DNA of 57,136 nucleotides, the filler included, from Stramenopiles sp. TOSAG23-6 (taxonomy: Eukaryota): NCBI GenBank assembly GCA_900128565.1. It is 2 parts of 2 records of this genome, joined end to end, with 100 filler letters (N's around TTAATTAATTAA, not from the genome) between each part and the next. Parts side by side here need not be neighbours in the genome. Positions count along the whole stretch, not along the records: positions 1 to 28,682 come from LT635976.1; positions 28,783 to 57,136 come from LT635977.1. The stretch is one strand, 5' to 3'. The translations under genes and the position numbers were made by a program. Within the stretch, counting starts at the first letter, position 1. The number at the start of each line of letters is the position of its first letter. This document shows positions 11,599-55,592 of the stretch, piece after piece. The notes beneath the pieces are model-generated. The model was not told the DNA's origin. It was given only the letters and a program-made list of their open reading frames with translations, and did not search any database.

Positions 11599-13420
11599 AT
11601 GTCAAGTTCTAATAGAGAAATTGAAGGGCAGCTTGCTGCGTTAGAGATAGGCGTTGACGCCGCAAATGGGAACACGTTTGGCCCGTCCAAAGAAACTTTA
11701 GACCGTTTAAAACAGAATGATAGGGGTGGCGACGAGTTTAAAGGTGGACGGGCGGATATTCATAAATTTTCTCATCCCGTTATAGCTCAGAGAATGAGTT
11801 CTGTTGAAAATGAACAGAAGCGAGGAATGGAAGAGTTTGTAAAGTGGCTCAAGGATAATGGGGCAATTTTTCCAAATCTGTACTTTAAATGTTACTCTGA
11901 AAGCGTAAGAGGAGTCCATGCTGCCAAAACTATTTCACCATATCAACAGGTTATGGCAATTCCATTGAAATGTATAATTACAGATGAAACTGGTAGGAGA
12001 ACTCCAATGGGGCAACGTTTAGAGGCTGTTCGGCATCAACTGACAGTTCCTAACCATTGTCAAGTTATTGTTTATATGATGACAACTCGTGAGCGTGGAG
12101 ATTCCTGGTTCCAGCCTTATTACGCCACCCTACCAAAAGATTTCAATAATTTCCCTATATTTTGGACGGACGAGGAACTCTCTTGGCTGGAGGGTTCCTC
12201 CCTCGTAGAACAAATTCGAGATCGGAAGAGAAATATCAGATCGGACTATGACACCATTTGCAAAGCACTACCTGAATTTAGCAGATTTACTTTTTCTGAT
12301 TTCTTGTGGTGTCGTACGGCAGTAGGAAGTCGTAACTTCAGTATCGTCGTGAATGGTGAAAAACGTACTGCAATGGTTCCTATGGCAGATATGCTCAACC
12401 ATGCACGTTTTATTTTTTTTCAATTTCGAATTTATTTTTAGTACGAAATTTTGTACCTAACGATTTTTTTTTGAAATATTTTTCCAAAATACAGTATCGT
12501 CCTAGAGAAACAAGTTGGACGTATGACAATTCGCAAGGAGCCTTTACTATGACGTCACTAAAGATATTGTCAGAGCACAATCAGGTGATGGATTCATACG
12601 GGAAGAAATGTAATTCAAAATTTCTCTTGCATTACGGTTTCACTATTGAATGTATGTTTTATTTTTTTTCAAATTCGAATTTTTTTTTTCGTACGGAATT
12701 TTTTACCTAACAAATTTTAATTTTTTTTTTGAAATATTTTTCCAAAATACATGTAACAGAGAAAGTGATGATAAATGTCAAAATGAATTAGATATCACTC
12801 TCTCCTTAGATGAGACTGATCCATTATTTGACAAGCGCAGTTATTATGTGAATAAATCTCGAGGCTATCGTGTTACTATGAATCATGTACGTTTTATTTT
12901 TTTTCAATTTCGAAATTATTTTTCGTACGAAATTTTATACCTAATAAATTTTAATTTTTTTTTGAAATATTTTTCCAAAATACATGAAGATCGAGGTACT
13001 CAGGATGCAATGGCATATTTACGTGTTGCTGTTGCTACTTCCGATGAACTTACATCATTTAGTCGCGGATTCCAGCATTCTGTTATATCAGCTCAAAATG
13101 AGTTAGCAGCACTTTTATTAATGGCTCAATTTTCAACGGAAGTATTGAGTGGGTACCCGAAGACAATGTCAGAAGATAATGCTGCACTTGCTGATGATGG
13201 ACTGGACCCCTTTTGTAATAAGCGCCACGCAATAATTGTGGTGAGAGGGGAGAAACAAATATGTCACTTTTATATTAAGCTTGCACAGGCTGCATCTCAG
13301 TTGCTGAAACTGCCCACAATGGAACGAAAACTTTTATTAAGTGAAAAATATACCGCAGACGATGATATTTCCAGGTTTTTGACTGCTACATGTCGTTCGC
13401 TTTTGTGTAAAGGATTATAA
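11599..13420 (+). CDS. SET-domain protein methyltransferase, SETD3/Rubisco-LSMT-like (509 aa); join(11599..12402,12495..12651,12753..12886,12986..13420)
   Basis: RGVHA, SWFQPYYATLP, PIFWTDEEL, MVPMADMLNH, DSYGKKCNSKFLLHYGF motifs plus a C-terminal substrate-binding helical domain. The three family introns restore a 1530-nt frame. Confidence 0.85.
12403..12494 (+). other. Intron (92 nt), family member, GC-AG
   Basis: AAC CAT|gcacgt...ccaaaatacag|TAT keeps the SET motif DMLNH. Confidence 0.85.
12652..12752 (+). other. Intron (101 nt), family member, GT-AT
   Basis: GAA T|gtatgt...ccaaaatacat|GT AAC. With this donor the next AGs give a frameshift (+7, +13) or a TAA stop (+9). Confidence 0.75.
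12887..12985 (+). other. Intron (99 nt), family member, GT-AT
   Basis: AAT CAT|gtacgt...ccaaaatacat|GAA GAT. Highly similar to the GC-AG intron 12403..12494. Confidence 0.75.
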
Positions 13421-13644
13421 GTTTATTGCTACGTATTGTTCACTTTTCTTTAAAGGATTATAAATTTACTAGGTGGCAAGATCATAGGGCTACTGTTTGA
13501 TATTTCGGCAGTGTAAAGCAGACCATTACTTTAACACAAAATCTACAAAAATACACTAATAAAAAATTGTCTGTTTAGAGATTAAAATTAGTGTGTTTTA
13601 TTTACTTCTTTAATTTTCTTCCTAGTGTTGACATCATCATCGTT

Positions 13645-15897
13645 TTATTTACGTACTTTTTTATTCGTTTTTTTTTGGTTTTGCATTTCTTTCCATTCTG
13701 CTTCTTCTTTAGCCAAAACTTCCTCTCTTTCTTTATTGAACTCTTCATACCCTGTAGCGTGCTTCACCTTGAATGCGAAATGTATAGCCCCTTTTACATT
13801 TAAATCTTCGGGTTTTGAATGAATTTCAGGCCATGTCTCAAGATTGATCCACCTTTCATGTATTCCAAGTCCTAATTGAAAAATTACAGCCGTTGGTACT
13901 CTAACGACTCCCATAAAATCATTATCTGATCCTAAGTCGTAATCCCAACAAGTAACAATAATTTCCCGGGGATCTGATTCGATAGCATACTTTACTACGA
14001 ATGGTGGATCATTCCAACTTGGATTCAAAGAGCATCTAACTACACTAGATTGGTAAAAACGATCCGCCTTTTTACCACTGCCCCATGTAATTGTATAATA
14101 GGGATCAGACTTTTTATTGAGATCCTTGGGTGCAAGACCTTTACCAGCTTTTACCCAAATTGTTATTTCTCGTACCCTCGGAGCAACAGTAGGTGTACGC
14201 CAAAGTATTGCTTTCACTTCGTCAGTCTCTGCGATTTCATTAGCATTCATCGGTTCCCACTCCTCCAGTCGTATTGCTTCGTTTAGAGATTCATTTGCAT
14301 CGTCACGTTCATCTATTTTATTTTTATTTATTTTGTTCCCTTTGTTTGTTTCATTTGTATTTCGAGATTTATCTTTAATTCTACTTCTGACCTTTTCGTG
14401 TACTTGATTTTTTATCTTCACTTCCTCCTTCAAAGTGCAAGAATCTCCTAAGCATTGAACTTTCCAAAAAGCTCCGTTTTTAGACATCATCAGTAAGACT
14501 AAATGTTTCCCCTCAAAGATATCTGGGTAAGTGTGCTTGGTCAAAGGAAACCTGAAAAGTTCACTCCCACCACCTGCCGAAAGATTTTCGATACCTTTAG
14601 TACCCGGCACAGCTGGGTCATTTACCCATGCTGTCAACGAAATCTTTCTGAATTCCGTCAAATCAAGTTTTGACGACAAATTTAAAGTATATAATATAAA
14701 CGAACATTCCTTTGGGATTTTTCTTAGGCGGAAAAAGATTTCTTCATTCTGTTTCCAGTGGTATAATTTAGATGGCAAATAAACTACTGCACCTGTCTTT
14801 GACACCAGAGGATCCGTTATTATTTCAAGTAGCTTTCCAGCATCACTGTATAGACACACACTCGTAGTTATATGCTTTGAAAGAAATTTTCCCACTCTCT
14901 GACCGAACCGATAGAGTTGAAGAGTTCCTCTGGGAAGCGCCAAATATGAAGTAGGTGCAGCTCCTTTAGGCTTCCCATCATCAGCATCATCTTCACAATC
15001 ATCTACAGCACCTTGAAGACCAAGATTCCGGCGTCTGGTATCTTCAGCGCTCAAATTAGCATCGAATACATATTGTAAAGATATTGAAAACTTTGTTACT
15101 GAGCCATGAATCCCAAAAGTTCCTCCAGGTCGCATGTCGGTGCAAGGCTGCCAGGGTGCACGAGTCCCTAATGGCGCCTTTGGAAAAAACAACTTTTCCT
15201 CTCCAGGACAAACTTCACAGATATAACATTCTTCAGGCGGTTGCATTCGAGTAGAACTTATATTGATAGCCCGATATCGAGCATAATTACCACGAAATAA
15301 TGATTGTATTTTCACTGCTGCACTTCTTTCGGTCAGTTTCTCCTCCCGCCATAAGTTTAGTAAAATTGAGCGAAACTTTCTTCTAGCTATACGACCTCTA
15401 TAGAATCGAGCCAAGAAATTAGCAGATTCTTGAGAATCTGTTTTGAATTTGATACGTATTTCATGCATGAATCTTTCTGCTCTTCCTCGTGTGAGTGCTT
15501 GAATTTTAGCTGCTGCTCGAGCCTGTTCTGCACGTTCTTCTCTAAGATTTTCAATATCGGTATCGTCATCACTATTGGAGTGCTCAGAATAAAAACTAGC
15601 GTCATCTTCATCCGCTTGCCACCATGCAATAAATTCATCAAAACTAATTTTCCCATCTTCATTTAGATTTATTTCACGCATTGCGTCTTCTATATCGGGT
15701 TCCTGGAGTTCTTCTCCTAGAACTTTTGCTAAGTTAATAAATTCGTTTTCATTGATGAAGCCTGACTTTTCAATGTCAAGAATATCAAAGTGTTCTCTTA
15801 TCACATGCAGCTGCTTAGTGGTAAGTAACCAGTTGTTGTCTTTACACGCTACTAGTCTCTCGCGATGGTACAATGAGAGCGGATTGTCCTTTCCCAT
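13645..15897 (-). CDS. EF-hand pair + IQ motifs + TerD-like domain + C2 domain protein (750 aa)
   Basis: DIEKSGFINENE and NLNEDGKISFDE EF-hands; AAKIQALTRG and AAVKIQSLFRG IQ motifs; EEIFFRLRKIP...FILY and WKVQCLG TerD-like; GLAPKDLNKKSDPY...LNPSWN...WDYDLGSDNDFMG C2. Confidence 0.8.
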   Translation of the reverse strand: MGKDNPLSLYHRERLVACKDNNWLLTTKQLHVIREHFDILDIEKSGFINENEFINLAKVLGEELQEPDIEDAMREINLNEDGKISFDEFIAWWQADEDDASFYSEHSNSDDDTDIENLREERAEQARAAAKIQALTRGRAERFMHEIRIKFKTDSQESANFLARFYRGRIARRKFRSILLNLWREEKLTERSAAVKIQSLFRGNYARYRAINISSTRMQPPEECYICEVCPGEEKLFFPKAPLGTRAPWQPCTDMRPGGTFGIHGSVTKFSISLQYVFDANLSAEDTRRRNLGLQGAVDDCEDDADDGKPKGAAPTSYLALPRGTLQLYRFGQRVGKFLSKHITTSVCLYSDAGKLLEIITDPLVSKTGAVVYLPSKLYHWKQNEEIFFRLRKIPKECSFILYTLNLSSKLDLTEFRKISLTAWVNDPAVPGTKGIENLSAGGGSELFRFPLTKHTYPDIFEGKHLVLLMMSKNGAFWKVQCLGDSCTLKEEVKIKNQVHEKVRSRIKDKSRNTNETNKGNKINKNKIDERDDANESLNEAIRLEEWEPMNANEIAETDEVKAILWRTPTVAPRVREITIWVKAGKGLAPKDLNKKSDPYYTITWGSGKKADRFYQSSVVRCSLNPSWNDPPFVVKYAIESDPREIIVTCWDYDLGSDNDFMGVVRVPTAVIFQLGLGIHERWINLETWPEIHSKPEDLNVKGAIHFAFKVKHATGYEEFNKEREEVLAKEEAEWKEMQNQKKTNKKVRK

Positions 15898-16238
15898 TAT
15901 TTTAGACTATCATATCAATGTATACCAATATAGGCCTACGTACTTCCTAACTAAGGCTATATAATAAGTCCAAATTAACGGAAGGAAAAGTTCAACGGAT
16001 TATTCTGCTACCTGCAAATTTTCTGCCTGCAGTGGCAGTCAGTCGCAGTCGCAGTCCAGTCTTCGATTTTTCGAATTTTATTTCGGCTTTATTTCGCCCG
16101 CATTGGCAATCGACGAACCCCTCTCTCGAGCTAAAAAGAGGAGGACATTTTTGTTCAACTTATTATTGCTCTCGCTCATTGCATATAATATTGACATTAT
16201 AAAGAAATAGTGGCACTTTCATAGATTGATAGTTTGAA

Positions 16239-17954
16239 ATGAAGCGCGGCCGTTCCAATAGTCCCAAGAAACCACCACCTAAGCGTCATAACTTGTTGGC
16301 GATAAAAAAGACAGTTAATGCTATTCCTCCTGAAACTCGTAAAGCAGTCGTACCTGAGCCTTCAACACCTCGTATAAGGTGCCCATATTTGGACACTATA
16401 AATCGAAATGTCTGTGACTTTGATGTTGCAAAAGAATGCTCTATTAGCCTTCGCAAACAACACGTTTATATGTGCCTTGTTTGTGGTACTATTTTTNATG
16501 GCCGTGGAAAAAACACTTTTGCGTACACCCACTCTGTACAAGCTGGCCACCACGTGTTTTTGAACCTACACTCTGAAAAGTTTTACTGCCTACCAGATTT
16601 ATACGAGATAGTTGACTCTTCTTTAGATGACATTCGTCTCGCACTGAACCCTGTGTTTACTTCGAATGATATGAATAATTTAGACACTAAAACGAGTTTA
16701 TCAAAAGATGTCTTTGGAGTCTCATACCTTCCTGGATATATTGGACTGAATAATTTAAGTTCAACAGATTACATCAATGTAGTTTTACATGCCCTTGCAC
16801 ATGTCAAACCACTTCGAAATTTTTTTTTGGATGCTACAAATTATCAAGGTTGTACTGATCCTCTAGTAGTAATGTATGGTGAGTTAATGAGGAAAATATG
16901 GAGTTCATTTTCTTTCAAAAATATTGTTGCTCCTCATGACTTTGTCAATGCAGTTGTTAAACAAAGTAAAAAGCGTTTTCAAGTCGGTACCCAAGGTGCT
17001 AGTGCTGAATTTCTCATTTGGTTACTGACTTCACTTCATAGGGGACTGGGAAAAGGAACGGGTAAGAATGGCAAAGATCTAAGTCGTAGAAAACGTGAAA
17101 GTTCAATAATCACTCAAACCTTTCAAGGTATTGTTGAAGTAAGAACAGAGCCTCTTCTCGTAAAGGAAACCATTGAAAATAGCAAATCCAATGGGCATGC
17201 TGAAGAAATATCTAATATTTCAGTTCAAAAGTCACCTTTCTTAGTTCTTTCGGTCGATTTACCAGCAATGCCGTTGTTCAAAGACAGTGAAGGAAGTAAT
17301 GTTATACCCCACGTGCAACTAATGCAAGTACTTCAAAAATTTAGTGGTCAAAAGCACACAGATTTTGTGTTGAAAAAAATACGAAGACGCTACGAACTCT
17401 TAGAACTTCCTCCCTATTTGATTGTTTGTTTGAAGCGATTTACAAAAAATAACTTTTTTACTGAAAAAAATTCGACTATCGTGAATTTCCCAGTTATTAA
17501 TTTAGACATGAAAACTTTCGTTAAAGATAGTGAAAATGATTTACAATCTAAAATTTCGGATGTTTTGTTGCCTAGTGTTGATGTGATTCGAAATATGTCC
17601 GTAGCCAATCTGAAGGGGCTTCTTGATAGTTTACAAGTGATCCATAAGGACATTGTAGAAAAAAGAGAATTAATCCTCCGCTGCGAGGAATCTGTCTCAG
17701 AAGAGAGAAAATTAAGAACACTTCGATCAAAATATGACTTGACAGCAAATATTGTGCATGACAGCCCACCGGCGGAAGATAGTAAAATTCAAGGTAAGGG
17801 TGACGCCATTGGTGACGGGAATTATCGAGTTCATATATTCCACGAAGCGACATCTCAATGGTATGAAATTGAAGATTTGCGTGTCAAAGAAATACTTCCT
17901 CAATTGATGAGTATTTCTGAGTCGTATATTTTAATGTATAAGCGTAAAGCATAA
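16239..17954 (+). CDS. USP39: U4/U6.U5 tri-snRNP-associated protein 2 (Sad1/USP39), inactive USP
   Basis: CPYLDTINR..DFD..KECS.SL...VYMCLVCG ZnF-UBP; YLPGYIGLNN...DYIN (catalytic Cys replaced by Asp); KRFTKNNFFTEKN.TIVNFP; WYEIEDL.V...LPQ. Confidence 0.93.
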   Translation: MKRGRSNSPKKPPPKRHNLLAIKKTVNAIPPETRKAVVPEPSTPRIRCPYLDTINRNVCDFDVAKECSISLRKQHVYMCLVCGTIFXGRGKNTFAYTHSVQAGHHVFLNLHSEKFYCLPDLYEIVDSSLDDIRLALNPVFTSNDMNNLDTKTSLSKDVFGVSYLPGYIGLNNLSSTDYINVVLHALAHVKPLRNFFLDATNYQGCTDPLVVMYGELMRKIWSSFSFKNIVAPHDFVNAVVKQSKKRFQVGTQGASAEFLIWLLTSLHRGLGKGTGKNGKDLSRRKRESSIITQTFQGIVEVRTEPLLVKETIENSKSNGHAEEISNISVQKSPFLVLSVDLPAMPLFKDSEGSNVIPHVQLMQVLQKFSGQKHTDFVLKKIRRRYELLELPPYLIVCLKRFTKNNFFTEKNSTIVNFPVINLDMKTFVKDSENDLQSKISDVLLPSVDVIRNMSVANLKGLLDSLQVIHKDIVEKRELILRCEESVSEERKLRTLRSKYDLTANIVHDSPPAEDSKIQGKGDAIGDGNYRVHIFHEATSQWYEIEDLRVKEILPQLMSISESYILMYKRKA

Positions 17955-18119
17955 TTTTCCCTCTTAATCCCTCTTAATTTACTGTTTTGTCGTGTTTATT
18001 TTGGAATAATAAAAAAGAAAAAAAATTACAAAAAGAGTTATTGAAAATCCATTCATTTATTTCTATAAAATATTTAATATTTGTCATATTATCATGAAAT
18101 TATTCTGAGTTATGTTGCT

Positions 18120-18674
18120 TTAACGTTTTCGTTTTGTAAGTACTGCGCGGAATAGTGTATCAAATGCTTTTTCAATATTTTTTCCAGATTGAGCTGAAGT
18201 TTCAAAATAAGGAAACCCCCTAGTCTCTGCCCAGCTTCGCCCGATGGATTCAGTTACCTGGCGTTGACTAACACTCTTGTCCGTTTTATTTGCACATACC
18301 ACACACCGAAGCATAGAAGCACCGTATTTACGTGCTTCTTTCATCCATGTATCCAATGACTCAAACGACTTTTTGTCATTGACGTCATAGACCAAAATCG
18401 CTCCTTGAGTATCTTTATAAAACTCATTTCTGACTTCGAAAAACTCTGGGTGCCCGGATAGATCCCAAAAGTTTACTTTAACTGTAGATCCATCAATATG
18501 TACCGGTTTGACCCCAAAGTCTACACCTATTGTACATATGTATCTTTTAGTGAATTTTTCTTCACAGTATCGTTTGATCACGCAACTCTTGCCAACGGCA
18601 CCGTTTCCCATCGAAATAATTTTAATTCGCACAACTTTCGGAGGTCGTGACCCTGCGCCCTTCTTTTGACTCAT
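18120..18674 (-). CDS. RJL: RJL-family Ras-like small GTPase (no J domain, no CAAX)
   Basis: KIISMGNGAVGKSCVIKRYCE, TIGVDFG, WDLSGHPEFFEVRNEFYKDTQG (His in place of catalytic Gln, typical of RJL/RBJ), NKTD, ETSA. Confidence 0.88.
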   Translation of the reverse strand: MSQKKGAGSRPPKVVRIKIISMGNGAVGKSCVIKRYCEEKFTKRYICTIGVDFGVKPVHIDGSTVKVNFWDLSGHPEFFEVRNEFYKDTQGAILVYDVNDKKSFESLDTWMKEARKYGASMLRCVVCANKTDKSVSQRQVTESIGRSWAETRGFPYFETSAQSGKNIEKAFDTLFRAVLTKRKR

Positions 18675-18898
18675 ATTTCAATACTCGATGCAATGCATTT
18701 AATCATATTTTGATTGAAAGCCAAAAGTGCCATTGCGTTTCTACGATTATTACACTTGCGAAAGCTTTTCTGTTTAAAATTTATTTTTTTGAGCCCAAAA
18801 GTTTATCTGAAAGGCTGTGTAACGTTCGTAACGTTATACGTTTAATCTAATTTAACGTACACATTTTTATTTTTTTTATTTATTTTGCAAACGAAAAA

Positions 18899-21757
18899 TT
18901 AAACCATAATAAAGATAAAAAGAAAAATTAATTGTCTGATCGGACCTCTGACTTCATATGTACATAATAAAGATTCCCAAATAATGCCAAATAAAGCGAC
19001 AACCCAGAAACAAGCTAAGCTTCCGTTCATAGCATTTAATTTATGAGTGCATATCATGTTTTGTAAAACATATTTTTTTTTGGTTTAAAAAAAATCGTTA
19101 GGTACAAAATTTGGTATGAAAAAAAAATAAATTTGAAATGAATGATGAAAACATACATAAAACACTGAACTAAACCTGATATAGTCAATACTGTTCGTAT
19201 AAAAATTAAGTACGAACTTCTGTATTTCTTACGAGCTAATATTGCGCGTCTTGTCGCAAGAGCCCATTGAAACGTAAACATCAATGGAAGTATTAATAAA
19301 TACATTCTAAAAAATAATGTAACGACAGAAGCCCAAGAACCAAACAAATATTGTGAAAAATATTTTTTTTTAGTAAAAAAAAATGTTAGGTACAAAATTT
19401 TCTATGAAAAAAAAAAAGTACATTCGAAATTAATGATGGTAACGTACAACATTCTGAAGGGACCACCAGCACAATCGCCAACACCATTTCCTGCGCGAAG
19501 AGCTACATGTTCAAGAGTGCTAAATTGAACGCGCGAACTTGAACTCATCATATCCGAATATTCCTTAGGTATAAAGTTTTGTATGAGAGAATTTATGTAG
19601 CTAGTCACTTGAGAAAATCCGCCAAATATTTCCCCAAAACTACCTGGTAATAACTCATGTAAAATAATACGCATCGAAATACCTGAAGAAAAAGTACCAA
19701 TGAAGCCAATTTCATTGCCCAAGCCTCCTACCGAACAAAATGTAGCTCCCAGGAGTGCCAAATTAGCTAATTGTATGTATTGTAAAAAATATTTTACATT
19801 CAATTTCGTTGTTACGTACAAATTTTCATAGTAAAAAAAAAAAGATCAATTTTAAATTCAATTATGAAAAAGTACATCGAATCCTTAAACCCCCAATGCC
19901 ATTCTAATCGGAGGACATCATTAATACCAGCATTTTCTGCATGTATTTTGGAAAAATATTTGAAAAAAAAAATCGTTAGGTACAAAAGTTCGTACGAAAA
20001 AAAAATCGATTTTTTTGTTAAAAAAAAAAATAAAACAAACATGGCTATGGATCTCCTGACTTTGTATGCCTAGTACAGTGTGCGCAAGGCCACATAATAA
20101 AATAAGAAAATGTACAGTATCCGGAAATGCAAATTTTGCCACCCAATTTCGTAACACGTGGCCAATAAAAACAGATGAAAGAAAACCATGTATTTTGAAA
20201 AAATATTTCAAAAAAAAAAAAAAAATTGTTAGGTACAAAATTTCGTACGAAAAATAAATTCGATTTTTTTTGTGAAAAAAAAAAATAAAACATACATTCA
20301 CTGTGAAGCCAGTAAAAATGAGCATCAACAGTGGAATGATAGGCTTTGAAAGAGTCAAAAGTAAATCAAACTGACAATGCATAGATGCACAATATCGACC
20401 TTTTGTACCTTTCCGAACATCAGTCCTGTGTTTGTAAAAGAATATGTCAAATTCGAAATTTCTTACGTATGAAATTTTCTATAAAAAAAATAAATTTGAA
20501 ATTCATGAAAAAAACATACATGGAAGGTCTTCGTCCAATGACAGAGAATAAGGCACTCGTACCACTAATTGCAAATACGTCTAGCATTTCACGTTCTTCC
20601 TGAATGATAATTTGTGATTCAACATTAGCCTTAAATTGAGCTTCCATAACGTTCGTGAGGGCATCTAACCGTTTCACCTCCCGTTGATTGACTGTATCAC
20701 TAGCTTTTTTCACTGCATTTTTTCTTCGAATCCCACCGGCCATTTTTTCAACATGTTGATTTAATTCCCTCAGCCTTTTCTGATATTTTAAAGTTAGAGC
20801 ATTTGATTTACTATCATCATTGTGTGTCATCATTAAACTACCGAAAATATCCCGAGAACCAATTGAAGACATGTAACGCTGTTGCTGCACAAATACAATG
20901 AAACGGACAAATGGAGAAATAAAAAGCTGAAATATTGTGGGAAGAGGTCCGACCAAGATCTGTTGTACAGCTGAAAATATCTTTTTCAAAAATGATTCGT
21001 GTTCTCTTCCACCACGAAATATACCGCGGCACAAATTAAATAAATGCCACAGCAAGAGTAAAAGACCAATTGTTGGCATTAAGCCGTTTTCTAATGTCAC
21101 AATCCCGTAGGTAAAATCTTTCAAAAAATAAGCAACTTCTGAAAAAAAATACGTAGAACTTTCCATTGTTGAGAATGTTGCTGAGAATGACGAAAAATAA
21201 TCAAGGACTTCAGCTTCCAACCCAAAGAGATGTGCTACACTATAGCAAGATGCAGTCTTTTTTGGTCTACTGTGACGCAGCATCCCTAGGGCTTCCTCGC
21301 GAGCGGCGCTTATTTGAGTGAAGAATGCTTCACCCATGGATTGATGATCTTTACCTAAACGAACAAGGCGATCTGGGTGGGTGCAAAAGGATACATCACG
21401 GTATGCTTTCGCAACATCTCCGCGAGAAAATGGTGACTGTACACCCAATAGAGCACAAGGTGAGCTATATATAATGTAAACTTTGACTAATACATATAAA
21501 CCCATCAAAAATACTAACCACCAAGGCGCTATGATGGAATTGTATTTCCTCGTTCCAACTATAACAGGTAATTCATCCATTTTCTTGAAATCCTCAGGCA
21601 CTTTGGGACTTTCAGTTTGCTTAGTAGTTGCTGTTGTTGCTTTTGGTGGTGATGCCTCAGAAGCTTTGCTTGATTCATCAGAAGTCGAAGCCTTTTGCTC
21701 TTTATCTACAGCTTTTAAAGCAGCTCTTTTGCGAGCTTTTGCGCGACTACCTCCCAT
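18899..21757 (-). CDS. J-domain (HPD) multi-pass membrane protein (~750 aa); join(20520..21757,20296..20425,20041..20187,19876..19940,19448..19774,19157..19345,18899..19055)
   Basis: LLGV...DVAKAYRDVSFCTHPDRL J-domain. Six family introns give a continuous 2253-nt frame with many hydrophobic helices, ending ATG GTT TAA. Confidence 0.7.
19056..19156 (-). other. Intron (101 nt), family member, GT-AT
   Basis: TTT AT|gtatgt...acaaaacat|G ATA. An in-frame AG exists only 36 nt downstream. Confidence 0.65.
19346..19447 (-). other. Intron (102 nt), family member, probable GT-TT
   Basis: ATG TT|gtacgt...tttttcacaatattt|G TTT. An in-frame AG alternative lies 39 nt downstream. Confidence 0.5.
19775..19875 (-). 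other. Intron (101 nt), family member, GT-AT
   Basis: TCG AT|gtactt...tacaatacat|A CAA. Next AGs (+8, +29) are out of frame. Confidence 0.75.
19941..20040 (-). other. Intron (100 nt), family member, GT-AT
   Basis: AGC CAT|gtttgt...ccaaaatacat|GCA GAA. Next AGs (+4, +37) are out of frame. Confidence 0.75.
20188..20295 (-). other. Intron (108 nt), family member, GT-AT
   Basis: GTG AAT|gtatgt...tcaaaatacat|GGT. No AG inside the intron or for ~118 nt downstream. Confidence 0.75.
20426..20519 (-). other. Intron (94 nt), diverged family member, GT-AG
   Basis: TCC AT|gtatgt...acaaacacag|G ACT. Confidence 0.8.
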
Positions 21758-21968
21758 TGAGTATTCTATGTTACTATGATAATCTTAGACGAATGGAATG
21801 CCCAAATCGCGTAATAAAAATTTTGCGACACTACTCGTGACCAAGGTCGATGTCGATGAACCGTGGTTCTGCGGAATGAATTATTTTTTTTTTTCGTTTG
21901 TTTGTTTGTTGTTTCGAAACGACCGTTAATTTCCGTTATTATAGCGTAGTAAAACTACGTAGAAAACC

Positions 21969-22470
21969 CATGGTTTCCGGGTTTTTACGTTTTACGCATA
22001 AATGCATTTACACGAAAAACTTAAAAGTGCCTTTTATCATAAATGACTTTATGGCCATTTCAAAAACACCCTTTTACCATAAATTAATTTATGCATAAAT
22101 GCATTTATCATAATGACTTTATGGCCATTTCAAAAACACCTTTTTACCATAAATTTATTTATGCATAAATGCATTACGGAATAAAGTGATATTTATGGTA
22201 TATTTATGTCTATGTAAAGCGTATTTATTGTGGTTTTATGCCTTGAAAAACACTAATTTTACCATAAATGGATTTATGATAATGCATTTATCATAATGAC
22301 TTTATGGCCATTTCAAAAACACCTTTTTACCATAAATTTATTTATGCATAAATGCATTTATCATAATGACTTTATGGCCATTTCCAAATCCATAAATTGC
22401 GGATTATTTACCAAGATAAAAAATAAAAACCTCGAATAAAGTTTTTATGGATAAAAACCCGGAAACCATG
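21969..22470. mobile_element. Non-autonomous DNA transposon (MITE), 502 bp, P- or hAT-superfamily-like
   Basis: Perfect 19-bp TIRs CATGGTTTCCGGGTTTTTA (21969..21987 and 22452..22470). 8-bp TSD AGAAAACC (21961..21968 and 22471..22478). Internal ~71-bp tandem subrepeats. No transposase. Confidence 0.92.
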
Positions 22471-22646
22471 AGAAAACCTATTTAATAGTAATAGTATTTA
22501 TTTAATTTAAGGCTACACGAATCACCCGAGTTTGAACTTTGAAGCTTGTAATGAAGTGTATCGTTATTTTATGTACATGAAATCCGTCGAATCATGAACA
22601 GATGAGTATTAATCAATAGTATATCTTTACCTTTTTTGTATAAAAA

Positions 22647-25600
22647 ATGGCTTCTGTGCTAGCCAAAGTTGATCTTACTTCAATGACTGCCTTACGACGC
22701 GAATTACAGAAACGAAACATTAGCACAACCACACCAAACTTAAAAGGGGAAGAGAGAAGAAAAGAGCTGGTGTATCGCTTAAAAGAAGTGCTTAATATCA
22801 TTGAATCAGAAAGTGATAGTAGTACAGAAGACTCAAGGAATCTATCAGAGCAAATAAGTAAACCGATAGACTGGAATAGTATGTTATCGATTCGTAAACA
22901 TCTTCTTGCTCGTAATCTTAGTGTATCAACACCAGGCGCGACTAATGAGGAACGTAGAGAGGTCTTAAAATGTCGACTCAAGGCATTTTTATCAAAGAAA
23001 AATGAGAAACGCAGAGATGTCGTAAAAGGTCGACTCGAGGCGTTTTTATCAAAGAAAAAAGATTCTTTGCCAAATAAAAATGTGCAGTTGTCACTACAAA
23101 CTGGTTTATGGAACAAACCAAAACAGGTTCCAGCAAAGAAAGCGGCTAGTTCGGCTCGGTCTGAAACTCGATTAAATGCCGACAGAGATGCTACTATAGT
23201 CAAGAATAACTCTACACTTACATCAGTAGATCAGTCATTAGGGTTAGGGTTAGGGCATGATTTTGTACCAAGTAGTGAACTTTTATCTTTACAAAAAAAA
23301 TTACAAAAGCAAAAAGATGAAATCGCGACAATAGAAAAGCGACGAAGAGATATTGTCTTCAAGAGACTTAGTGGTGCTGAAGGCACTGAACTCTTTGAAT
23401 TCATGAATGCATGTACGTTTTATATGAATTTCTAATTTATTTTTTTTCATACGAAATTTCGTACCTAACAAATTTTAGTTTTTTTTTTTTTGAAATATTT
23501 TTTCACAATACATTTCGATCGGTTAAACACGAATTGGATAGAGTTTGTAAGTGGAAAAAACGCTTTATTGATTCCAGTGCGCTCTGCATTGCAGCATATG
23601 CTCTTGGAACTGAATCAAAGAATAATGAAGAAACCGGTACAACAACCCGATTCCATGTCGATGTATGTTTTACTTTTTTTAAAATTCGAAAACTTTTTTC
23701 GTACGAAAATTTGTACCTAACGATATTTTTTTTGAAATTATTTTTCCAAAATACATGTATTACGTGTCCGTCTTGAGGAAGCTATTGTAAAGATGAAGAA
23801 ATCGTTATCTGATAAGCGAATGTCGGTTATGGCAGAGGAACGTCATAATCCACTCACTGGGGTTATTGTACAACGAGAAAAACAAGAAACAATTTCACAT
23901 CTTCAGGAAAAAGTTGAGTCTCTTTATGACTATGAATTAGATACACATATACACCACAAGAAGGAGAAACGCCAAGATAGAGAAATGAAACAAAATTCGG
24001 ATCGAAAGTCCAAATTACGAGTGTCAACTGAGTCAAATAAAAATAGACATGGAGGGAAACATAGTCGTAAAAGCCTTCGAAAAGGTGGTGCAGCCGCTGT
24101 TGCAAGACGTGCTGCAACTGGTCTTTCAGATTACTCTGCCCAGAAGGCAATGAGAGCAGCACGTGTTCGACTTGCTGCTAAATTTAACGATCAACTTTCA
24201 CGATCAGGTTCGGCAAACCCAGTGGGGAGAAATAGATTATCCGTAGTTCCTGGAGGATCACCAGTAGTACAACTTCGAGGAAATGATATTATTGCTCCAC
24301 CTCCCTCTGGCGATTCCTTTACAGAGACAAATAATAGTAAATTCGGAAATAGATATGCGAAGTTACCCCATTCTCGTCGTTTTGATTTTGATAATAGTGA
24401 TAGCATACCTCCTAGAATATCAGGAATTTCTGCGTCTCGCAATGAGGAGTCCATCGTATATCAAAATCCGGATAAATGTTGGCGTCAAGCATTTGTAAAG
24501 TANATAGCGAAACAAGATATAAAGGGCGCATCAACACTTTTCATGAAAGGAATTGCATTACATCCATATCACCCAGAATTGCTTCATCAATATGCTAACT
24601 TTATTCGCACAACTACAAGAAATTCAGAACTTGCGTCGAATCTCTATCTGCGAGCTCTTGAGGCATTCAGCAAAGGTCGAAATACTAATTTAAATGATGC
24701 AGAACGGTATAGTGCAGGGATTACTATGTTTGATCACGGAATGCACATGCAGGCATGTGGACAAACTGAAGCTGCTTTAAATTCTTTTAAAAAAGCTGTC
24801 GTAGCTTGTCCGAATCATCCTAGATTACTAGCAAAGCTGGCTGTTACNTTACACCGAATTCTCCCAAGCGAAAAACAAAATGATCGCCCGCCTTCACGTG
24901 CAAAGAATCATACAGATATAGTGACAAATTCGCGGACACCTATAAAAGAGAAGTTGCGTGTTCAAGACTTATACGAGCGGGCTTTTGTTGCTGATAGATT
25001 TAATGTGAAAAATTTAGTGAACTATGCACTCTTTTCTCAACGGTTATTAAAAAATAATAACCTTGCCGAAAAGTTGTTTCTTCAGGCATCCATATTAGAC
25101 CCATTTAATGGTGGTATTCTTTCAAACTTTGCTGCTTTCCTCGTGAAGGAAAAAAATGATTATGACCGAGCAGAAGCCTATTATAGAAGGGGTATTGAGA
25201 ATGATCCAAAACATGCTGGATGTATAGGCAATTATGCATCATTTCTCTGGAGAGTGCGAAATGATACTAAAAGTTCACACGCTTACTTTGAAAAGGCAAT
25301 GCAACTATCTCCGAATCATGCAAATAATCTGGGTAAATTCGCATCATTGCTCAAAAGTTGCAAAAAGTTTAAAGAAGCAGAAACTTTATACGAAAGAGCT
25401 ATTGCTGCTGATCCAGCAAATGCAACAATCCTCGGCAACTTTGCTAATTTTGTAAAGAAAATTCGTGGAGATAATAAATATGCAAAGAATTTATATTTAA
25501 AAGCTTTACAAATCGAACCGAATCACCGAATGAACCGTCGCAATTACGGACTACTTTTACGCGATTGTCCTGAACTTCGCGATGGGCCTAGTCGAGTCGT

Positions 25601-25655
25601 GTATCGAAGTGAATTTAGTAACACCGAAGGAAAGATTGCATCTCGAGGAAAATAA
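22647..25655 (+). CDS. TPR-repeat protein with two N-terminal SAP/HeH-like repeats (~937 aa); join(22647..23412,23514..23662,23757..25655)
   Basis: C-terminal TPRs (AEAYYRRGIENDP...GNYASFL; AETLYERAIAADP). Two family introns join three ORFs in frame (2814 nt). A TAN codon at ~24501 is ambiguous. Confidence 0.75.
23413..23513 (+). other. Intron (101 nt), family member, GT-AT
   Basis: GCA T|gtacgt...tcacaatacat|TT CGA. Confidence 0.7.
23663..23756 (+). other. Intron (94 nt), family member, GT-AT
   Basis: GTC GAT|gtatgt...ccaaaatacat|GTA TTA. An in-frame AG lies 21 nt downstream. Confidence 0.65.
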
Positions 25656-41671: not shown

Positions 41672-41794
41672 GGTAGCATTTCTCTATTGTTTTTTATGCG
41701 GTTTTAATGAAAACGGCATTAAAAAACATAAGATATTAAAAGATATGAATATACTCAGCGTATACGTTATAGTACGGTTGTCAAATACACGAAA

Positions 41795-41836
41795 TGCCAC
41801 GTGGCACTAATTTAAATTTCTGTTAGTCAACTTTAC
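41795..41836 (+). promoter_or_regulatory. Shared upstream element with TGCCACGTGGCA, copy 2
   Basis: TGCCACGTGGCACTAATTTAAATTTCTGTTAGTCAACTTTAC, ~116 nt before ATG 41922. Confidence 0.6.
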
Positions 41837-41921
41837 GTTATGCGTACCTAGGCTATATGAATTTTCAATTATTATTATTGTCCAATCAATCTATATAAAA
41901 AGCAAAAAAGAGTGAAACAAG

Positions 41922-42869: not shown

Positions 42870-43049
42870 GTAAGTGTTTCAAAACCCTAACCCTAATAAA
42901 ATGAAAAAAAAAAAATTATGAAATTTTGTACCTAACCAAAAAAAAAAAAAAAAAAAAATATTTTTTTTTTTTTTTTTTTTTGGTTAGGTACAAAATTTCA
43001 TAATTTTTTTTTTTTCATTTTATTAGGGTTAGGGTTTTGAAACACTTAC

Positions 43050-50832: not shown

Positions 50833-52176
50833 ATGAATTATCTCTGTATTGTGCTGCTATTATTGATGATAATAAGTATAAGAGAAAGTAAAGGAGCTAC
50901 AACAGCAGAAATTACACTAGGCCTAAGAGGAGGTCCTACTTCGCAATTATCTCGCAGCGATTTAGGTAGTTTCTCTGCTGTTTCACGTGCGATGAACAAG
51001 GCAAGTGAAGTTGAATTTGGCATACGCGCACTTCGTACATCTAAAATGGTGAAAGAACTGATGCAATTATCGAGTGGAAATGTAGATATTAATTCCGTCA
51101 ATCAACATAAAGATGAGTCATCAATTCAATGGCTACGCCGTCTAGAAGGTATTCGTAAGGAATTGGAAAGAAATGCTTTAACTGTATTGTATGATACTAC
51201 AGGTGGAATCAATTGGAGTCGTAATAAAAATTGGAAGACAGATCAAGATATTTGTACATGGGATGGAGTAACGTGTAATGAAAGAGGGTGGGTTACTAAA
51301 TTGCACTTGTGGAGCAACAACCTATCTGGTTCAATACCAACGGAAATTGGTCTACTAAGAAATCTTGAAATGTTAATCTTGAATCACAACGAACTAACTG
51401 GTTCAATCCCAACGGAAATTGGTCAACTAATAAAGCTCCAAGATTTGATCTTGGACGAAAACCAACTAACTGGTTCAATACCAACAGAAATTGGTCAACT
51501 ATCAAGTCTCACTCAATTGTCCTTGCCATTCAACAAACTATCTGGCTCAATCCCAGCAGAAATTGGTCTACTAAGAAATCTCAAAGTTTTGGACTTGCGT
51601 ATCAACCAACTATCTGGTCCAATACCTTCGGAAATTGGTCAACTAACAAAGCTCAAAGAATTGATTTTGCGGAAAAACCAAATATCTGGTGCAATTCCAA
51701 AAGAAATTGGTCAACTAACGAAGCTAAGAGATTTGTCCTTGTCTCACAACAAACTATCTGATCCGATTCCAACGGAAATTGGTCAACTAAAAAGTCTTGT
51801 AAATTTTTACTTGTTCAACACCAGACTATCTGGTACAATTCCAAAAGAAATTGGTCAACTAACAAGTCTCGTTAGATTGTACTTGAACGACAACCAACTA
51901 TCTGGTGCAGTACCAACTGAAATTGGTCTACTAACAAATCTTGAACGTTTGATCTTGGGAGACAACAGCCTATCTGGTTCTATACCAAAAGAAATTGGGC
52001 AACTAACAAAACTTGAAAATTTGAATTTGGGTTTCAACAAACTATCTGGCTCCATTCCAAAAGAAATTGGTCAACTAACAAGTCTTGTTAGATTGGATTT
52101 GCAGAGAAACAACCTATCTGGTCGAATACCAGAGGAAATTGGTCAACTAACAAATTTTTTTGGTTTTTTACATTGA
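50833..52176 (+). CDS. Mirror copy of the secreted LRR protein
   Basis: Exact reverse complement of 33743..35086. Confidence 0.85.
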   Translation: MNYLCIVLLLLMIISIRESKGATTAEITLGLRGGPTSQLSRSDLGSFSAVSRAMNKASEVEFGIRALRTSKMVKELMQLSSGNVDINSVNQHKDESSIQWLRRLEGIRKELERNALTVLYDTTGGINWSRNKNWKTDQDICTWDGVTCNERGWVTKLHLWSNNLSGSIPTEIGLLRNLEMLILNHNELTGSIPTEIGQLIKLQDLILDENQLTGSIPTEIGQLSSLTQLSLPFNKLSGSIPAEIGLLRNLKVLDLRINQLSGPIPSEIGQLTKLKELILRKNQISGAIPKEIGQLTKLRDLSLSHNKLSDPIPTEIGQLKSLVNFYLFNTRLSGTIPKEIGQLTSLVRLYLNDNQLSGAVPTEIGLLTNLERLILGDNSLSGSIPKEIGQLTKLENLNLGFNKLSGSIPKEIGQLTSLVRLDLQRNNLSGRIPEEIGQLTNFFGFLH

Positions 52177-52667
52177 TTTGAAATTAGAAAAACAATTGGG
52201 TAAATATATCTAGTTGGTTCAGTATTGTTTTTTCGATAACTTTTCATGTTATATATGTTATTTTTTTGATAAATAATAAATGTACAAAATGTATATAAAA
52301 TGGTATTATCAAAATATTTTGAAACAAAATTAGAGAACTTTTTAATAATTCCTAATGATAACATTCGACCACAACTTTCTCATAAAGTATATATCATCAT
52401 CATTCAAGAATATGAAATAATAATTTTGTATTGAGAGACAGGAACAGTTAATTATTTTTAGGAAAAAACACGAAAAAACATTTAAAATTTATACCCTTGA
52501 GTCAAAACTACAAATGCACTACAAATTATAAATACCTTGACAAACTCAAGTGTCGTTCGAGTTATAGGACTGTGTGCGCTTACAACATTAATAACTGAAA
52601 AGTTTTATTATTAAACCTTTCAAGAATACATCTAATACATTTACTTTGATAACGTGGAACACGGAGT

Positions 52668-55592
52668 ATGGGAAGCATCATCACTAAATTAGTGCCACCT
52701 GATTATAAAGTTTCAATAGCGTCTAATGTGTGGAAGTGGCGTAGTGCTTTCTCAATACTTTTCTTTATCCTTGGTATTGTATGGATTTCTTTATTCCCTC
52801 TCGCATGTATAACATGTGGTGAAACGAAATGCAGGGGTACGTATCTATCTGAGAATGCCTTAATGCCTGGCTCATCGCTAGTTTCTTTTAGCAATGCTGA
52901 GATATCGCGTGCAAAAGAATTCGACGCTGCATTTTGGGAAATGCCACCTTCGAAAATTGGTGCAAAGTCTCACCAACGTCGTGATTGGTTATTGTCAACC
53001 CTTAGAGATATGGGTATAGAGGCAAATATTCACCGTTATGAGGTTGATGGTGTCGAGCGATATAATGTATATGGAGTTCTAAGGGCATCGAGAGCCTCTG
53101 GAGCTGAAGGCATGGTACTAGCCGTCACTGGTGCTAATGAAGATGTAAGTAAGAATAGACTACACTCAACTACAAGGGATACGAATTATACCTCTGGACT
53201 AGCAACATCTTTAGCTCTTTTTGAAATGTTAACGAAACTAAATTGGCTTGCTAAAGATTGTGTTCTTCTGATTCCATTAGATATTGATCTTAACAATCCT
53301 CTGGAAAACCCTAATCAAAACAAAAAACAAAAACAAAACAATCAACAAGGATTACCTTTGTCATATGGTATTGAAGCATGGCTTGAAGCATACACATTAC
53401 CACAACCTAAACTATCACAATCATTTCTGCGTGTTGGAACGATTCGCGGTGCAATTGTTGTTCAAGCTTCAGTCGATTTTGGACGTTTTACACATATAGG
53501 TAAGTAAAAAAACATCGAANTTNTGTTTTTTTTTTTTCGTACGAAATTTCGTACCTAACAAATTTTTTAGAATTTTTTTTGAAATATTTTTCCAAAATAT
53601 AGCAGCACTTCTTCCTGGTATAAACGGTCAATTACCTAATTTGGACTTGTTTAATGTTGTTGAAAAAGTTTCAGATGTTCCAATCATGTTGACAAGAACA
53701 GCACATATTGATTCCTTTGCGAAATTTACAGTAATAGCCATGCCATATTTTAAACAATTTCTTCTTTGCATTCCAAAAAAATTTCGACATTATTTTAATG
53801 ATTATCTTCAGAAAATGGCAGGAGTTTTGCGTTTTAGTGGAAGCCTTGCTCGTGGTCCATTAGGGCCTCATGCTCATTTTAGTAAATATAATATTGAAGC
53901 GTTGACAATTACACCTGTTACAATTGGTAGAAAGACATATGGTGGTGCAAGATCAAAATCATTTGGTGTTCTTGTGGAAAAACTTTTACGAAGTATGTAC
54001 GTAACCCTAACCCTACCTAAATACGAACCCTAACCCTACCTTAAAAAAACAAACCTAACCCTATTGAATAGTATATATATATTTCTTGGTACACATCAAA
54101 ATCATACCAAGTTTTTGTTTTTAACAAATATCAAATTTGACATATTGTGTAACACTGTAGTAATAATTTAGAGGAAAGATTTCATCAATCATTTTGTAGG
54201 TTTTCATTATTTTACATTTTTTTAAAATTTTTTTTCCAAAAAACGTTTCGTACGAAATTTTGTACCTAACAAAAAATTTGAAATTTTTTTTTGAAATATT
54301 TTGAAAAAATACATGGTTTTATATATTACCCTCTCCGACACTAATGGTCACTATTGGTGAATATAGTTTTGTTTTGCTTTTGATATGTATTCCTGTAATT
54401 ATAAAAATCTTAGGTTTGATTTATTCCGTGGACAGACTCGATTTTGTCGGTGCTCTATGTAGGTTAACCCTAACCCTACCCTTACTTTTACATTTTTTTT
54501 TTTTTTTGTACGAAATTTTGTACCTAACAAATTTTCACATTTCAATTTTTTTTTTAAATATATGGCCATCCTTGCTACCTTTTGCGATGGGGGGAATATT
54601 GTTTATTGTATCTACACAATCGTTAGAACAATACAAAAACAAACTTTATTTTTTAGATGTTTTCAAAACAAATGGTATCGGAGATTTTTTTGTAGAGGTT
54701 TTGAATAAGATTGCATTGTTTTTTCATAATGTTTTAGTAGGTAGAAATTTTGTAGAAAATATATTGATTATTATGTAAGTTTTATTTATTTTTTTTGTTT
54801 TCCGTAAAAAAAAAATCGAATTTATTTTTTATAGTAAATTTTGTACCTAACAAAATTTTTTAGATTTTTTTTTTGAAATATTTTTCCAAAATATATGCTA
54901 TGTACGGAAGGTTTAATTTTCATGTATGTCGGTTATAATTTAATGTACGCAAAGGGACGTACTGGTCGTTGGCAGGCTGTTAAAATTATAACACTCATTA
55001 TTTGGCTTTCAATACATCTTGTCCTTGGCCTTGGCAATTTTTCACTTGCTTGTAGGTTAACCCTAACCCTAACCCAAGTTTTCATTTTAATTTCTTTTTT
55101 TTTTAATTTTTTTTCGTAGATAATTTTGTACCTAATGTTAATTTTTTTTTGAAATATTTTTCCAAAATATAGTACTTTCTGGATTAATCACTGTCCCATT
55201 TTTAACAATAGTTCAGCCACTGCTCTCAACAAATTCAATCACAATGAAAGATGTTCTTCAGGTATATTTTATTTTATTTTTTCAATTTTTTGTCTAAATT
55301 TTTTTTTTATAGTAAATTTTGTACCTAACAATTTTTTTTTAGATTTTTTTTGAAATATTTTTCTACAATACAGTTACTGTTTTTAGTCTTCTTATCACCG
55401 GTTTCGATATTTTTTGTATTTATTCCAAAAATAAGTCATAGTATTGGCGTACATCATGAAATATTGAATCTTGAAACATTTAAAAATGATTGGAATAATT
55501 ATGGAAATTGGATTTATCCTTTAATTTGTATTTGTTATACACCTATACACTCTATTGCTACGGCTATTGCATTTACAGGGCAAGTGCAATGA
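52668..55592 (+). CDS. GAA1: GAA1 (mirror copy); join(52668..53499,53603..53996,54161..54195,54315..54458,54564..54774,54897..55051,55173..55261,55374..55592)
   Basis: 2079-nt spliced frame. Introns end AG, AG, AT, AT, AT, AG, AG. Confidence 0.88.
54196..54314 (+). other. GAA1 intron 3 (119 nt), GT-AT
   Basis: CAA TCA TTT T|gtaggt...gaaaaaatacat|GG TTT TAT ATA TTA restores the conserved HQSF.FY.L motif. Confidence 0.85.
54459..54563 (+). other. GAA1 intron 4 (105 nt), GT-AT, contains CCCTAA repeats
   Basis: CTA T|gtaggttaaccctaaccc...aaatatat|GG CCA. Confidence 0.7.
54775..54896 (+). other. GAA1 intron 5 (122 nt), GT-AT
   Basis: ATT AT|gtaagt...ccaaaatatat|G CTA. Confidence 0.72.

Follow-up and report, generated by a model that had tools for sequence, protein, structure and literature searches.

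Introns with AT acceptors in a stramenopile: one introner family and a probable duplication of its target site

Why should an intron end in AT, and why should its last two bases repeat the last two bases of the exon in front of it? These questions are raised by a stretch of DNA from Stramenopiles sp. TOSAG23-6 (GenBank assembly GCA_900128565.1), 57,136 nucleotides (nt) long and here called the window. It is AT-rich (~35% GC), gene-dense eukaryotic DNA. Most of its introns begin with a canonical GT and end in AT, and almost all of them belong to one family of short repeats. These introns are introners, and we propose that the dinucleotide at their 3' end is probably a two-base-pair (2-bp) copy of the target into which each element was inserted.

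The window consists of two contigs, contig A (ending at 28682) and contig B (28783-57136). The initial annotation of this DNA described a gap at 28683-28782. As read from the sequence, this is an artificial linker (N44 + TTAATTAATTAA + N44) that joins two separate contigs, and the DNA after it belongs to an unrelated palindromic contig. In contig B, 42960-57136 is the exact reverse complement of 28783-42960 (100% identity, offset 0, N positions included), and this inverted copy carries the mirror images of introns E_i1 to E_i7, F_i1 and G_i1. The introns that the initial annotation placed at 50-55 kb thus repeat, in mirror image, those at 30-36 kb.

Intron ends and the use of non-AG acceptors

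The introns were located independently by coordinates, on the criterion that their removal must yield a continuous open reading frame (ORF). There are 21 complete introns in seven genes, including one (7825-7919) that lies beyond the range of the initial annotation. In 16 of the 21, the intron and the exon upstream of it end in the same two bases (AT/AT in 12, TT/TT in one and AG/AG in three, exon given before intron). These counts are identical to those first reported, and a recount gives the same five mismatches, then listed at 12403, 20426, 53997, 55052 and 54196. They are 12403 (AT/AG), 20426 (AT/AG), 31759-31922 (AT/AG, the mirror of 53997), 30747-30867 (TT/AG, the mirror of 55052) and 31605-31723 (TT/AT, the mirror of 54196). 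The earlier statement that every non-AG intron follows an exon ending in T also holds, for 14 of 14.

When the pairing of exon and intron ends was permuted 100,000 times, the mean number of matches was 10.43, compared with the 16 observed (p(>=16)=0.00167). Taken singly, position -1 matches in 17/21 introns (13.0 expected, p=0.026) and position -3 in 10/21 (6.75 expected, p=0.06). An exon ending in AG is paired only with an intron ending in AG, this being so for 3/7 AG introns and 0/14 non-AG introns.

The donors conform to the U2-type consensus, with GT in 20/21 and GC in 1/21, G at +5 in 19/21 and T at +6 in 21/21. The 3' ends depart from the canonical AG, being AT in 13/21, AG in 7/21 and TT in 1/21, with A at -2 in 20/21 and a final base that is T or G. 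The upstream exon ends in AT in 15/21, compared with a frequency of 9.2% for the AT dinucleotide in bases 1-42960, and the downstream exon begins with G in 14/21. The three intron phases are equally represented (7/7/7), as expected of an insertion that is blind to the reading frame.

It is essential to establish that the non-AG acceptors are genuine. A point in their favour is that AG is absent from the last 30 nt of the introns. A search downstream of the 14 non-AG introns finds no AG within 45 nt for three of them, a first AG that is out of frame for eight, and an in-frame AG 21-39 nt away for three. Alignments to homologues or to Pfam models are ungapped over seven junctions, four of which are AT-ending (A_i1, SET_i2, SET_i3 and E_i3).

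A_i1 (7825-7919, minus strand, 95 nt, phase 2) is a family intron GT..AT that follows an exon ending in AT. Its removal joins two ORFs into one of 3019 amino acids (aa). The Pfam cNMP_binding domain matches model positions 2-30 before the intron and 36-87 after it, and the intervening residues account for the join exactly. The family profile finds this copy with nhmmer at E=6e-10.

The gene for a SET protein has three family introns on the plus strand, and all three junctions are crossed without a gap by eight homologues, which are the best-scoring proteins of at least 451 aa from the 150 listed. SET_i1 (12403-12494, 92 nt) is GC..AG after an exon AT, and thus a mismatch; the homologues align without a gap across its junction, ADMLNH|YRPRE. 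SET_i2 (12652-12752, 101 nt, phase 1) and SET_i3 (12887-12985, 99 nt) are both GT..AT after AT. The first AG downstream of SET_i2 (+7) is out of frame, and the homologue P0123, 66% identical, reads HYGFTIECNRE over this junction and MNYEDRGT over that of SET_i3, where the homologues in general have MN(H/Y)EDRGT. SET_i3 is a multiple of three in length and contains no stop. The homologues have neither a 33-aa insert nor a 6-aa deletion here, which excludes that the intron is retained or that splicing uses the in-frame AG at +18. Pfam was also run on small exon pieces, of which 3/6 gave no match, and SET_i2 and SET_i3 were checked by homologues instead.

In a GAA1-like gene on the minus strand, the two homologues compared (P0121 and P0122) are ungapped over the first three introns. 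E_i1 (32317-32419, 103 nt) is a family intron GT..AG after AG. E_i2 (31759-31922, 164 nt, CCCTAA-rich) is GT..AG after AT, a mismatch, with LLRS|INNLEE across the junction and a weak profile score (nhmmer E=6.4). E_i3 (31605-31723, 119 nt) is a family intron GT..AT after TT, also a mismatch, with HQSF|WFY where the two homologues have HQSFFFY, and with no AG in the 45 nt downstream.

Direct evidence from RNA comes from a comparison with seawater DNA and RNA contigs that covers 11500-26330 only, the introns of contig B lying outside the RNA evidence. A 354-nt polyA metatranscriptome contig (X8 rec30) joins 20037-20186 to 20295-20424 and omits the 108 nt of B_i2 (20188-20295, minus strand), a family intron GT..AT after AT with no AG in the 45 nt downstream; the register of the join slides within a repeated CAT. 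The same contig ends at 20424, next to B_i1, with 74 unplaced letters beyond. Contig X8 rec25 starts exactly at 12495, the border of SET_i1, with 43 unplaced letters before it, and X8 rec28 aligns up to exactly 19774, the border of B_i4, with 30 unplaced letters beyond; rec29 is unspliced over B_i4. The joints listed were 15 of 378, and joints between copies dominated. Independent seawater DNA contigs enter the elements, breaking off at 12419 (rec1) and 19102 (rec3), and the DNA contigs contain elements while the polyA RNA contig is without B_i2.

RNA contig, homologue and Pfam junctions all agree with the initial proposal that splicing removes these introns scarlessly, from the GT to the second copy of the dinucleotide. 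The AT acceptors, and probably the TT acceptor, are really used, as far as this is testable here.

The remaining introns were placed mainly by reading frame and alignment. Besides B_i2, the gene for a 750-aa membrane protein contains five family introns, all on the minus strand. B_i1 (20426-20519, 94 nt, GT..AG after AT, a mismatch) is supported by alignment and by the edge of X8 rec30. B_i3 (19941-20040, 100 nt, GT..AT after AT, with the 5' end GTTTGT) is needed for the 750-aa ORF, and the first AG downstream (+4) is out of frame. B_i4 (19775-19875, 101 nt) and B_i6 (19056-19156, 101 nt) are GT..AT after AT, the former bordered by X8 rec28 and the latter placed by ORF and family alignment. 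B_i5 (19346-19447, 102 nt) is GT..TT after TT and is the sole TT/TT case; its boundary is set by the ORF, since ending the intron one base earlier cuts the protein to 648 aa.

On the plus strand, C_i1 (23413-23513, 101 nt) and C_i2 (23663-23756, 94 nt) are family introns GT..AT after AT, both placed by ORF, and the second also by family alignment; 55 DNA contigs that stem from other copies diverge directly behind 23513. In the GAA1-like gene, E_i4 (31356-31460, 105 nt, with CCCTAA repeats behind the donor) and E_i5 (31023-31144, 122 nt) are family introns GT..AT after AT, E_i6 (30747-30867, 121 nt) is GT..AG after TT, a mismatch, and E_i7 (30546-30657, 112 nt) is GT..AG after AG. All four were placed by reading frame and family alignment, and E_i7 has an nhmmer match to model positions 28-105; their junctions lie in poorly conserved regions of GAA1, where only the reading frame supports them. 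Finally, F_i1 (35740-35831, minus strand, 92 nt, GT..AT with the end ..TAAAT, after AT) and G_i1 (42610-42747, plus strand, 138 nt, GT..AG after AG) are family introns placed by ORF and alignment.

A further copy is truncated by the end of contig A (28628-28682, minus strand). It matches nhmmer model positions 44-106 at E=9e-12 and has TT before the ORF. The exon upstream of it lies outside the window. A CAG occurs 14 nt downstream of the TT, and the acceptor is not established for this copy.

A family of introners

In total, 20 of the 21 introns belong to one repeat family that can be aligned from end to end, E_i2 being the exception that is not a clear member. One family thus supplies essentially every intron seen. 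The family consensus is AT|GTAnGTTTTATTT..AATTTCGAA..TTTCGTACGAAATTTTGTACCTAAC..T-rich..TTGAAATATTTTTCCAAAATAC-AT|G. Its parts are a 5' GTAnGT, an internal branch site TACCTAAC, a T-rich tract, and a 3' end consisting of ...AAAATAC plus 2 nt, in a total length of 92-138 nt. A branch site resembling TACCTAAC, which is of the CTAAC type, is present in all family copies at 34-55 nt from the 3' end. Over 190 pairs of copies, the median identity is 67% and the highest 92%.

A profile built from the alignment and run with nhmmer recovers 19 copies in full length and another over three quarters of it, besides the truncated one at 28628-28682, with E-values for family members of 1e-8 to 1e-18. All the copies found by the profile lie within genes on the sense strand, and between genes there are just short core fragments. 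Genic, sense-only copies fit an RNA-mediated route as well as they fit selection. Isolated fragments of the element core lie in 3' or intergenic regions at 4-72 (minus strand) and 37847-37881 (plus strand). There is also a partial intron with two tandem copies of the core (28783-28975, minus strand), which starts with AT|GTTAGT and runs up to ..AACAT at the very end of contig B. In its centre the element contains a perfect 10-base palindrome, TTCGTACGAA, adjoining the branch site, as at 12925-12934. Read from the consensus, the two intron ends when joined (3' to 5') would form an 8-base palindrome, TACATGTA.

The family probably extends well beyond the window. In an independent seawater DNA run, word depth is ~5,000-13,000 in bins that contain the element and 7-12 in unique sequence, these depths being summed over all organisms in the run. 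In seawater DNA and RNA contigs, with the same summation, element depth is hundreds to more than 1,000 times that of unique sequence. The depths point to a family of very large size. Contigs cross-mapped from other copies restore the family consensus base at 12440, 12696 and 12945, where the local copy deviates. Searches elsewhere found little: a 16-mer core scan of metagenome_contigs gave 118 loci, none of which had element flanks among those inspected and which are taken as chance matches; a 22-mer core scan gave no loci in genome_contigs or viral_contigs; and Rfam gave no matches in 1-43000.

The repeat is an introner as the literature uses the term, that is, a set of sequence-similar introns at unrelated sites in unrelated genes.

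Target duplication and the alternatives

We hypothesise that in this uncultured marine stramenopile a short non-autonomous mobile element, an introner of 92-138 nt, inserts into coding DNA and would duplicate 2 bp of its target, usually AT and sometimes TT or AG, to give the product XY|GTA...TAC-XY|. Each copy would bring its own GTAnGT donor, TACCTAAC branch site, T-rich tract and ...AAAATAC 3' end. A U2-type spliceosome would cut before the GT and after the second XY, restoring the original mRNA scarlessly. The acceptor would be whatever the target had supplied; what selects it would be its place 2 nt beyond the ...TAC end, whether or not it is AG. Some copies would later have changed AT to AG (T to G). 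We infer that the repeat is a target duplication, that the inserter was a DNA transposase, and that the acceptor is recognised by this route. We consider it probable that the introns are copies of one non-autonomous introner and that a 2-bp target duplication has become their acceptor.

Several observations favour duplication. The exon before the sole TT intron also ends in TT. In the family alignment, AG ends and AT ends fall in one and the same column. In the metagenome, copies are similar to one another from 12650 on, so that the exonic AT is included (41 contigs), and up to 23513, so that the intronic AT is included (55 contigs). The initial annotation had suggested that AG copies are derived, and this is supported by SET_i1 (GC-AG, exon AT), which is 92% identical to SET_i3 (GT-AT), with its AG in the same column. 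Of its proposal of an element with a 2-bp target duplication, the single mobile-looking family with GTA...TAC ends stands; the repeated dinucleotide could instead be an AT carried by the element into AT|G sites.

It is this last point that gives the most substantial alternative. The same introner, with the same GT-AT splicing, would involve no duplication if the whole GTA...TACAT inserted between the AT and the G of (C)AT|G, either by a site-specific DNA mechanism or by reverse splicing into mRNA followed by reverse transcription and recombination. The identity of exon and intron ends would then be a preference for the target, and the AG ends would be later mutations. The site preference is indeed strong (exon AT in 15/21, downstream G in 14/21), the intronic AT ends (13/21) stand at a fixed alignment column, every full-length copy is genic and in the sense orientation, and the palindrome TACATGTA would make an intermediate that is circular or joined at its ends resemble its own target. 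This explanation does not predict the locus-specific matches, namely TT with TT and exon AG only with intron AG (p=0.0017), and it leaves the AT acceptor still to be explained; moreover, selection in a gene-dense genome would also leave only genic, sense copies. We regard insertion without duplication as possible but rather unlikely.

A different solution would be to shift the true register by two bases, so that the introns become AT-AC introns (x|ATGTA...TAC|ATy) and no unusual acceptor is needed. The repeat gives the same mRNA in both registers for the 12 AT/AT introns; the initial annotation had cautioned that cDNA alone cannot in most cases tell GT-AT from AT-AC. It is also true that ATGTAT resembles GTATGT with the purines exchanged, and that A-C terminal pairs function in known AT-AC introns, which counts for this register. 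The shift would make both intron ends heterogeneous, the first bases becoming AT, TT or AG and the last bases AC, AT, AA or GT. The GT register gives a GT start in 20/21 with a conserved GTAnGT. Near-identical copies (92%) would need differing registers. The initial annotation had cited the SET motif DMLNH and the GAA1 motif HQSF against AT-AC, and rightly so: the shift alters conserved residues at 12403 and 31723, where SET_i1 loses the NH of DMLNH and E_i3 becomes HQSL in place of the conserved HQSF. For E_i3 the AT-AC register is impossible. Overall, the GT register is favoured, because GTAnGT is near-invariant while the exon end varies, and because the shifted register makes both ends heterogeneous; AT-AC splicing is very improbable.

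Still less credible is an artefact, whether the intron boundaries are wrong, the amplified single-cell genome was misassembled, or the elements are removed from DNA and not from RNA. The perfect palindrome of contig B and the joining of two contigs in the window show that the assembly is not free of artefacts, and the boundaries are inferred and not annotated. Set against this, reading frame and ungapped alignments to homologues fix the boundaries; independent seawater DNA covers the region and enters the elements, with no difference at intron ends among those listed; and a polyA RNA contig is without B_i2 where DNA contigs have elements. The artefact reading is thus already largely refuted.

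The duplication itself meets a number of difficulties. The sample is 21 introns in seven genes only, and locus-specific information is present in just 4/21 (one TT/TT and three AG/AG), of which the AG/AG cases are confounded with the ordinary AG|GT...AG consensus. Position -2 taken alone is not significant (19/21 matches, 17.3 expected, p=0.14). Five introns mismatch, and E_i6 (TT as against AG) needs two changes. Direct RNA bridging is seen for one AT intron, B_i2. No empty-site DNA allele occurs among the listed contig joints in the seawater data for 11500-26330, no autonomous partner or transposase is seen within the window, and the profile search of the window finds no full-length copy outside a gene or in antisense. 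The inverted GTA...TAC ends described in the initial annotation are present in the family consensus but are very short: the match of GTAyGTTTT to AAAATAC amounts to 3+4 nt (GTA and TTTT) with an indel. They lengthen to ATGTA/TACAT solely through the palindromic AT, and AT being its own reverse complement, AT...AT can equally be read as an extension of the inverted ends (ATGTA...TACAT).

Other mechanisms were considered and rejected. A 3-bp duplication (ATG) would make use of the downstream G, found in 14/21, and is not preferred because it leaves nine exceptions compared with five. A duplication of TA, as made by Tc1/mariner-like elements, needs the 8-base palindrome in every target, and the spliced mRNAs are without it. 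For excision driven by structure, the folding of five copies is no better than that of shuffled sequence (z-scores -0.63, +0.74, -1.29, +0.19 and -1.88), with a terminal helix of 6-7 bp in the minimum-energy fold of 4/5 copies. DNA elimination of the kind seen for ciliate internal eliminated sequences conflicts with the presence of elements in DNA contigs, with the absence of one from polyA RNA, and with the conserved donor and branch signals.

How the AT is recognised by the spliceosome is a separate matter. In structures of the post-catalytic spliceosome the last intron G pairs with the first G, and the A at -2 pairs with the branch A. A G-U pair at the last and first intron bases might be tolerated here. 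We tentatively suggest, as a doubtful possibility, that in this stramenopile lineage the spliceosome may ignore the acceptor dinucleotide of these introns and cut a fixed two bases past ...AAAATAC, in which case any 2-bp duplication would serve. The position of the cut could be set by the short end-to-end helix or by the distance from the TACCTAAC branch site. If this were true, one transposon family would fill coding sequence scarlessly and would make up essentially the whole intron complement, a reading that leans on the 20/21 introns here and on the thousands of copies indicated by metagenome depth.

Genomic setting and comparison with known introns

ORFs of 3019 aa (the cNMP-binding protein), 509 aa (SET, Rubisco-LSMT-like), 750 aa (the membrane protein), 937 aa (a TPR protein) and 692 aa (GAA1-like) are obtained only once the introns are removed; there are also two partial genes. 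A USP39-type protein (16239-17951) has its best relatives among stramenopiles (a dictyochophyte, brown algae and oomycetes), with identities of at most 52%. DNA matching the window is present in two small DNA runs from 2015 and in seawater metagenomes, and partly in seawater metatranscriptomes.

Some further features may be noted. Contig B as a whole is a perfect palindrome, with its fold-back point within an intron that begins with GTAAGTGTTTCAAAACCCTAACCC at ~42880, and it looks like a fold-back chimera of amplified DNA. A DNA contig from the independent seawater run omits 510 intergenic bases (21961-22470), where there are direct repeats of 70-94 nt (22042-22388); this is likely to be an insertion/deletion polymorphism of another small repeat. 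Within an ORF at 33693-34640 (mirror 51229-52176) there are ~13 tandem units of 72 bp with 60-75% identity, which look like a coding array of the leucine-rich-repeat type. A 99-nt stretch occurs at 33428-33526 and again, 92% identical, at 35206-35304, upstream of two adjacent minus-strand genes, and may be a shared promoter or leader module.

Telomere-type repeats are also frequent. Dimers of TTAGGG, allowing at most one mismatch, occur 21 times compared with an expected 0.11, at 11397, 23238-23255, 28793, 29118, 30847, 31440, 31880, 31903, 35633, 39747 and 42885 and at the mirror copies. In several introns they lie directly behind the donor (GTAGGTTAACCCTAACCC), and they are also found in frame in coding exons, as LGLGLG in the TPR gene and NPNP in an ankyrin gene. 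One possible origin is the repair of breaks by telomerase, of which they would be the scars.

Bursts of intron gain are at present best explained by introners, and a central question about them is how a newly inserted element is recognised by the spliceosome from day one. The published families carry an AG or duplicate a target that supplies one, and Fritillaria and Amoebophrya show that a spliceosome can come to accept unusual ends. The near-identical AG and AT copies within one gene described here form a clean natural experiment on the weight of the 3' dinucleotide. If the duplication holds genome-wide, the idea of proto-splice-site duplication would be shown directly at a non-AG site, and the lineage would seem to have relaxed its splice-site recognition at the second step. 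There is also a practical consequence, in that gene finders and introner surveys accepting only AG or AC would overlook or wrongly model most of this organism's genes. The feature is worth following up genome-wide.

Among known intron classes, U12-type introns have a flexible 3' dinucleotide, an acceptor defined by position and, rarely, GT-AT ends. They are defined by the donor RTATCCTT and by a branch site TCCTTAAC ~10-26 nt from the 3' end. The donors here are GTA[ACGT]GT(T/A) and the branch-like site is farther from the 3' end, at 34-55 nt, and a U12-type assignment was rejected.

The principle of an acceptor derived from duplication is already published, for Micromonas, Chrysochromulina and Fritillaria. 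Introners of Chrysochromulina and Micromonas IE1 carry the donor and obtain the acceptor from the target duplication, which is of 3 bp in Micromonas pusilla IE1 and of 4 bp in a comparison family described beside it (Gozashti et al. 2022 PNAS; Mob DNA 2024 review). According to the former paper, matches across the intron alone cannot separate duplication from site preference, locus-specific positions being needed for that, and in fungi a sense and genic bias is linked to insertion by way of RNA (Gozashti et al. 2022 PNAS). Introner surveys take AG and AC as accepted 3' sites. Our family resembles these introners in being a short repeat that serves as an intron, in the sense orientation within genes, with its own donor, an intron end probably copied from the target and scarless removal. 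It differs in that the co-opted acceptor is AG there and AT (13/21) or TT (1/21) here, and in its 2-bp repeat, its minimal inverted ends and its stramenopile host.

The introns derived from miniature inverted-repeat transposable elements (MITEs) in the tunicate Fritillaria borealis come closer in one respect: duplication of a TAC in the exon supplies the acceptor ..AC, which is not AG (Henriet et al. 2019, as described in the Mob DNA 2024 review). Here too the exon end would be duplicated as a non-AG 3' end, the major spliceosome would be used and the origin would be a transposon. The donors of this animal are themselves non-canonical (AG-AC, AG-AT), whereas in our protist the donor is GTAnGT and only the acceptor is unusual. 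The introners of Amoebophrya and the nonconventional introns of euglenids share with the present family direct repeats that overlap the borders, an ambiguous register and inverted ends able to pair (Farhat et al. 2021; Mob DNA 2024 review). They are described as having no conserved terminal dinucleotides and as forming stable hairpins from inverted repeats of 8-20 nt (same sources). In contrast, the introns described here have a conserved donor and branch site and a helix of 6-7 bp, and do not belong to the hairpin-dependent class as it is described there.

A literature search found, among the papers it covered, none that joins 'GT-AT' with 'introner', the supplements of introner papers, which may list non-AG families, not being covered by the search; it returned nothing relevant on non-canonical stramenopile introns or on MAST-4 introns. 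Compared with the systems above, what is new is the combination of a canonical GT donor and a branch site with AT acceptors in about two thirds of the copies, a 2-bp repeat, and a stramenopile host.

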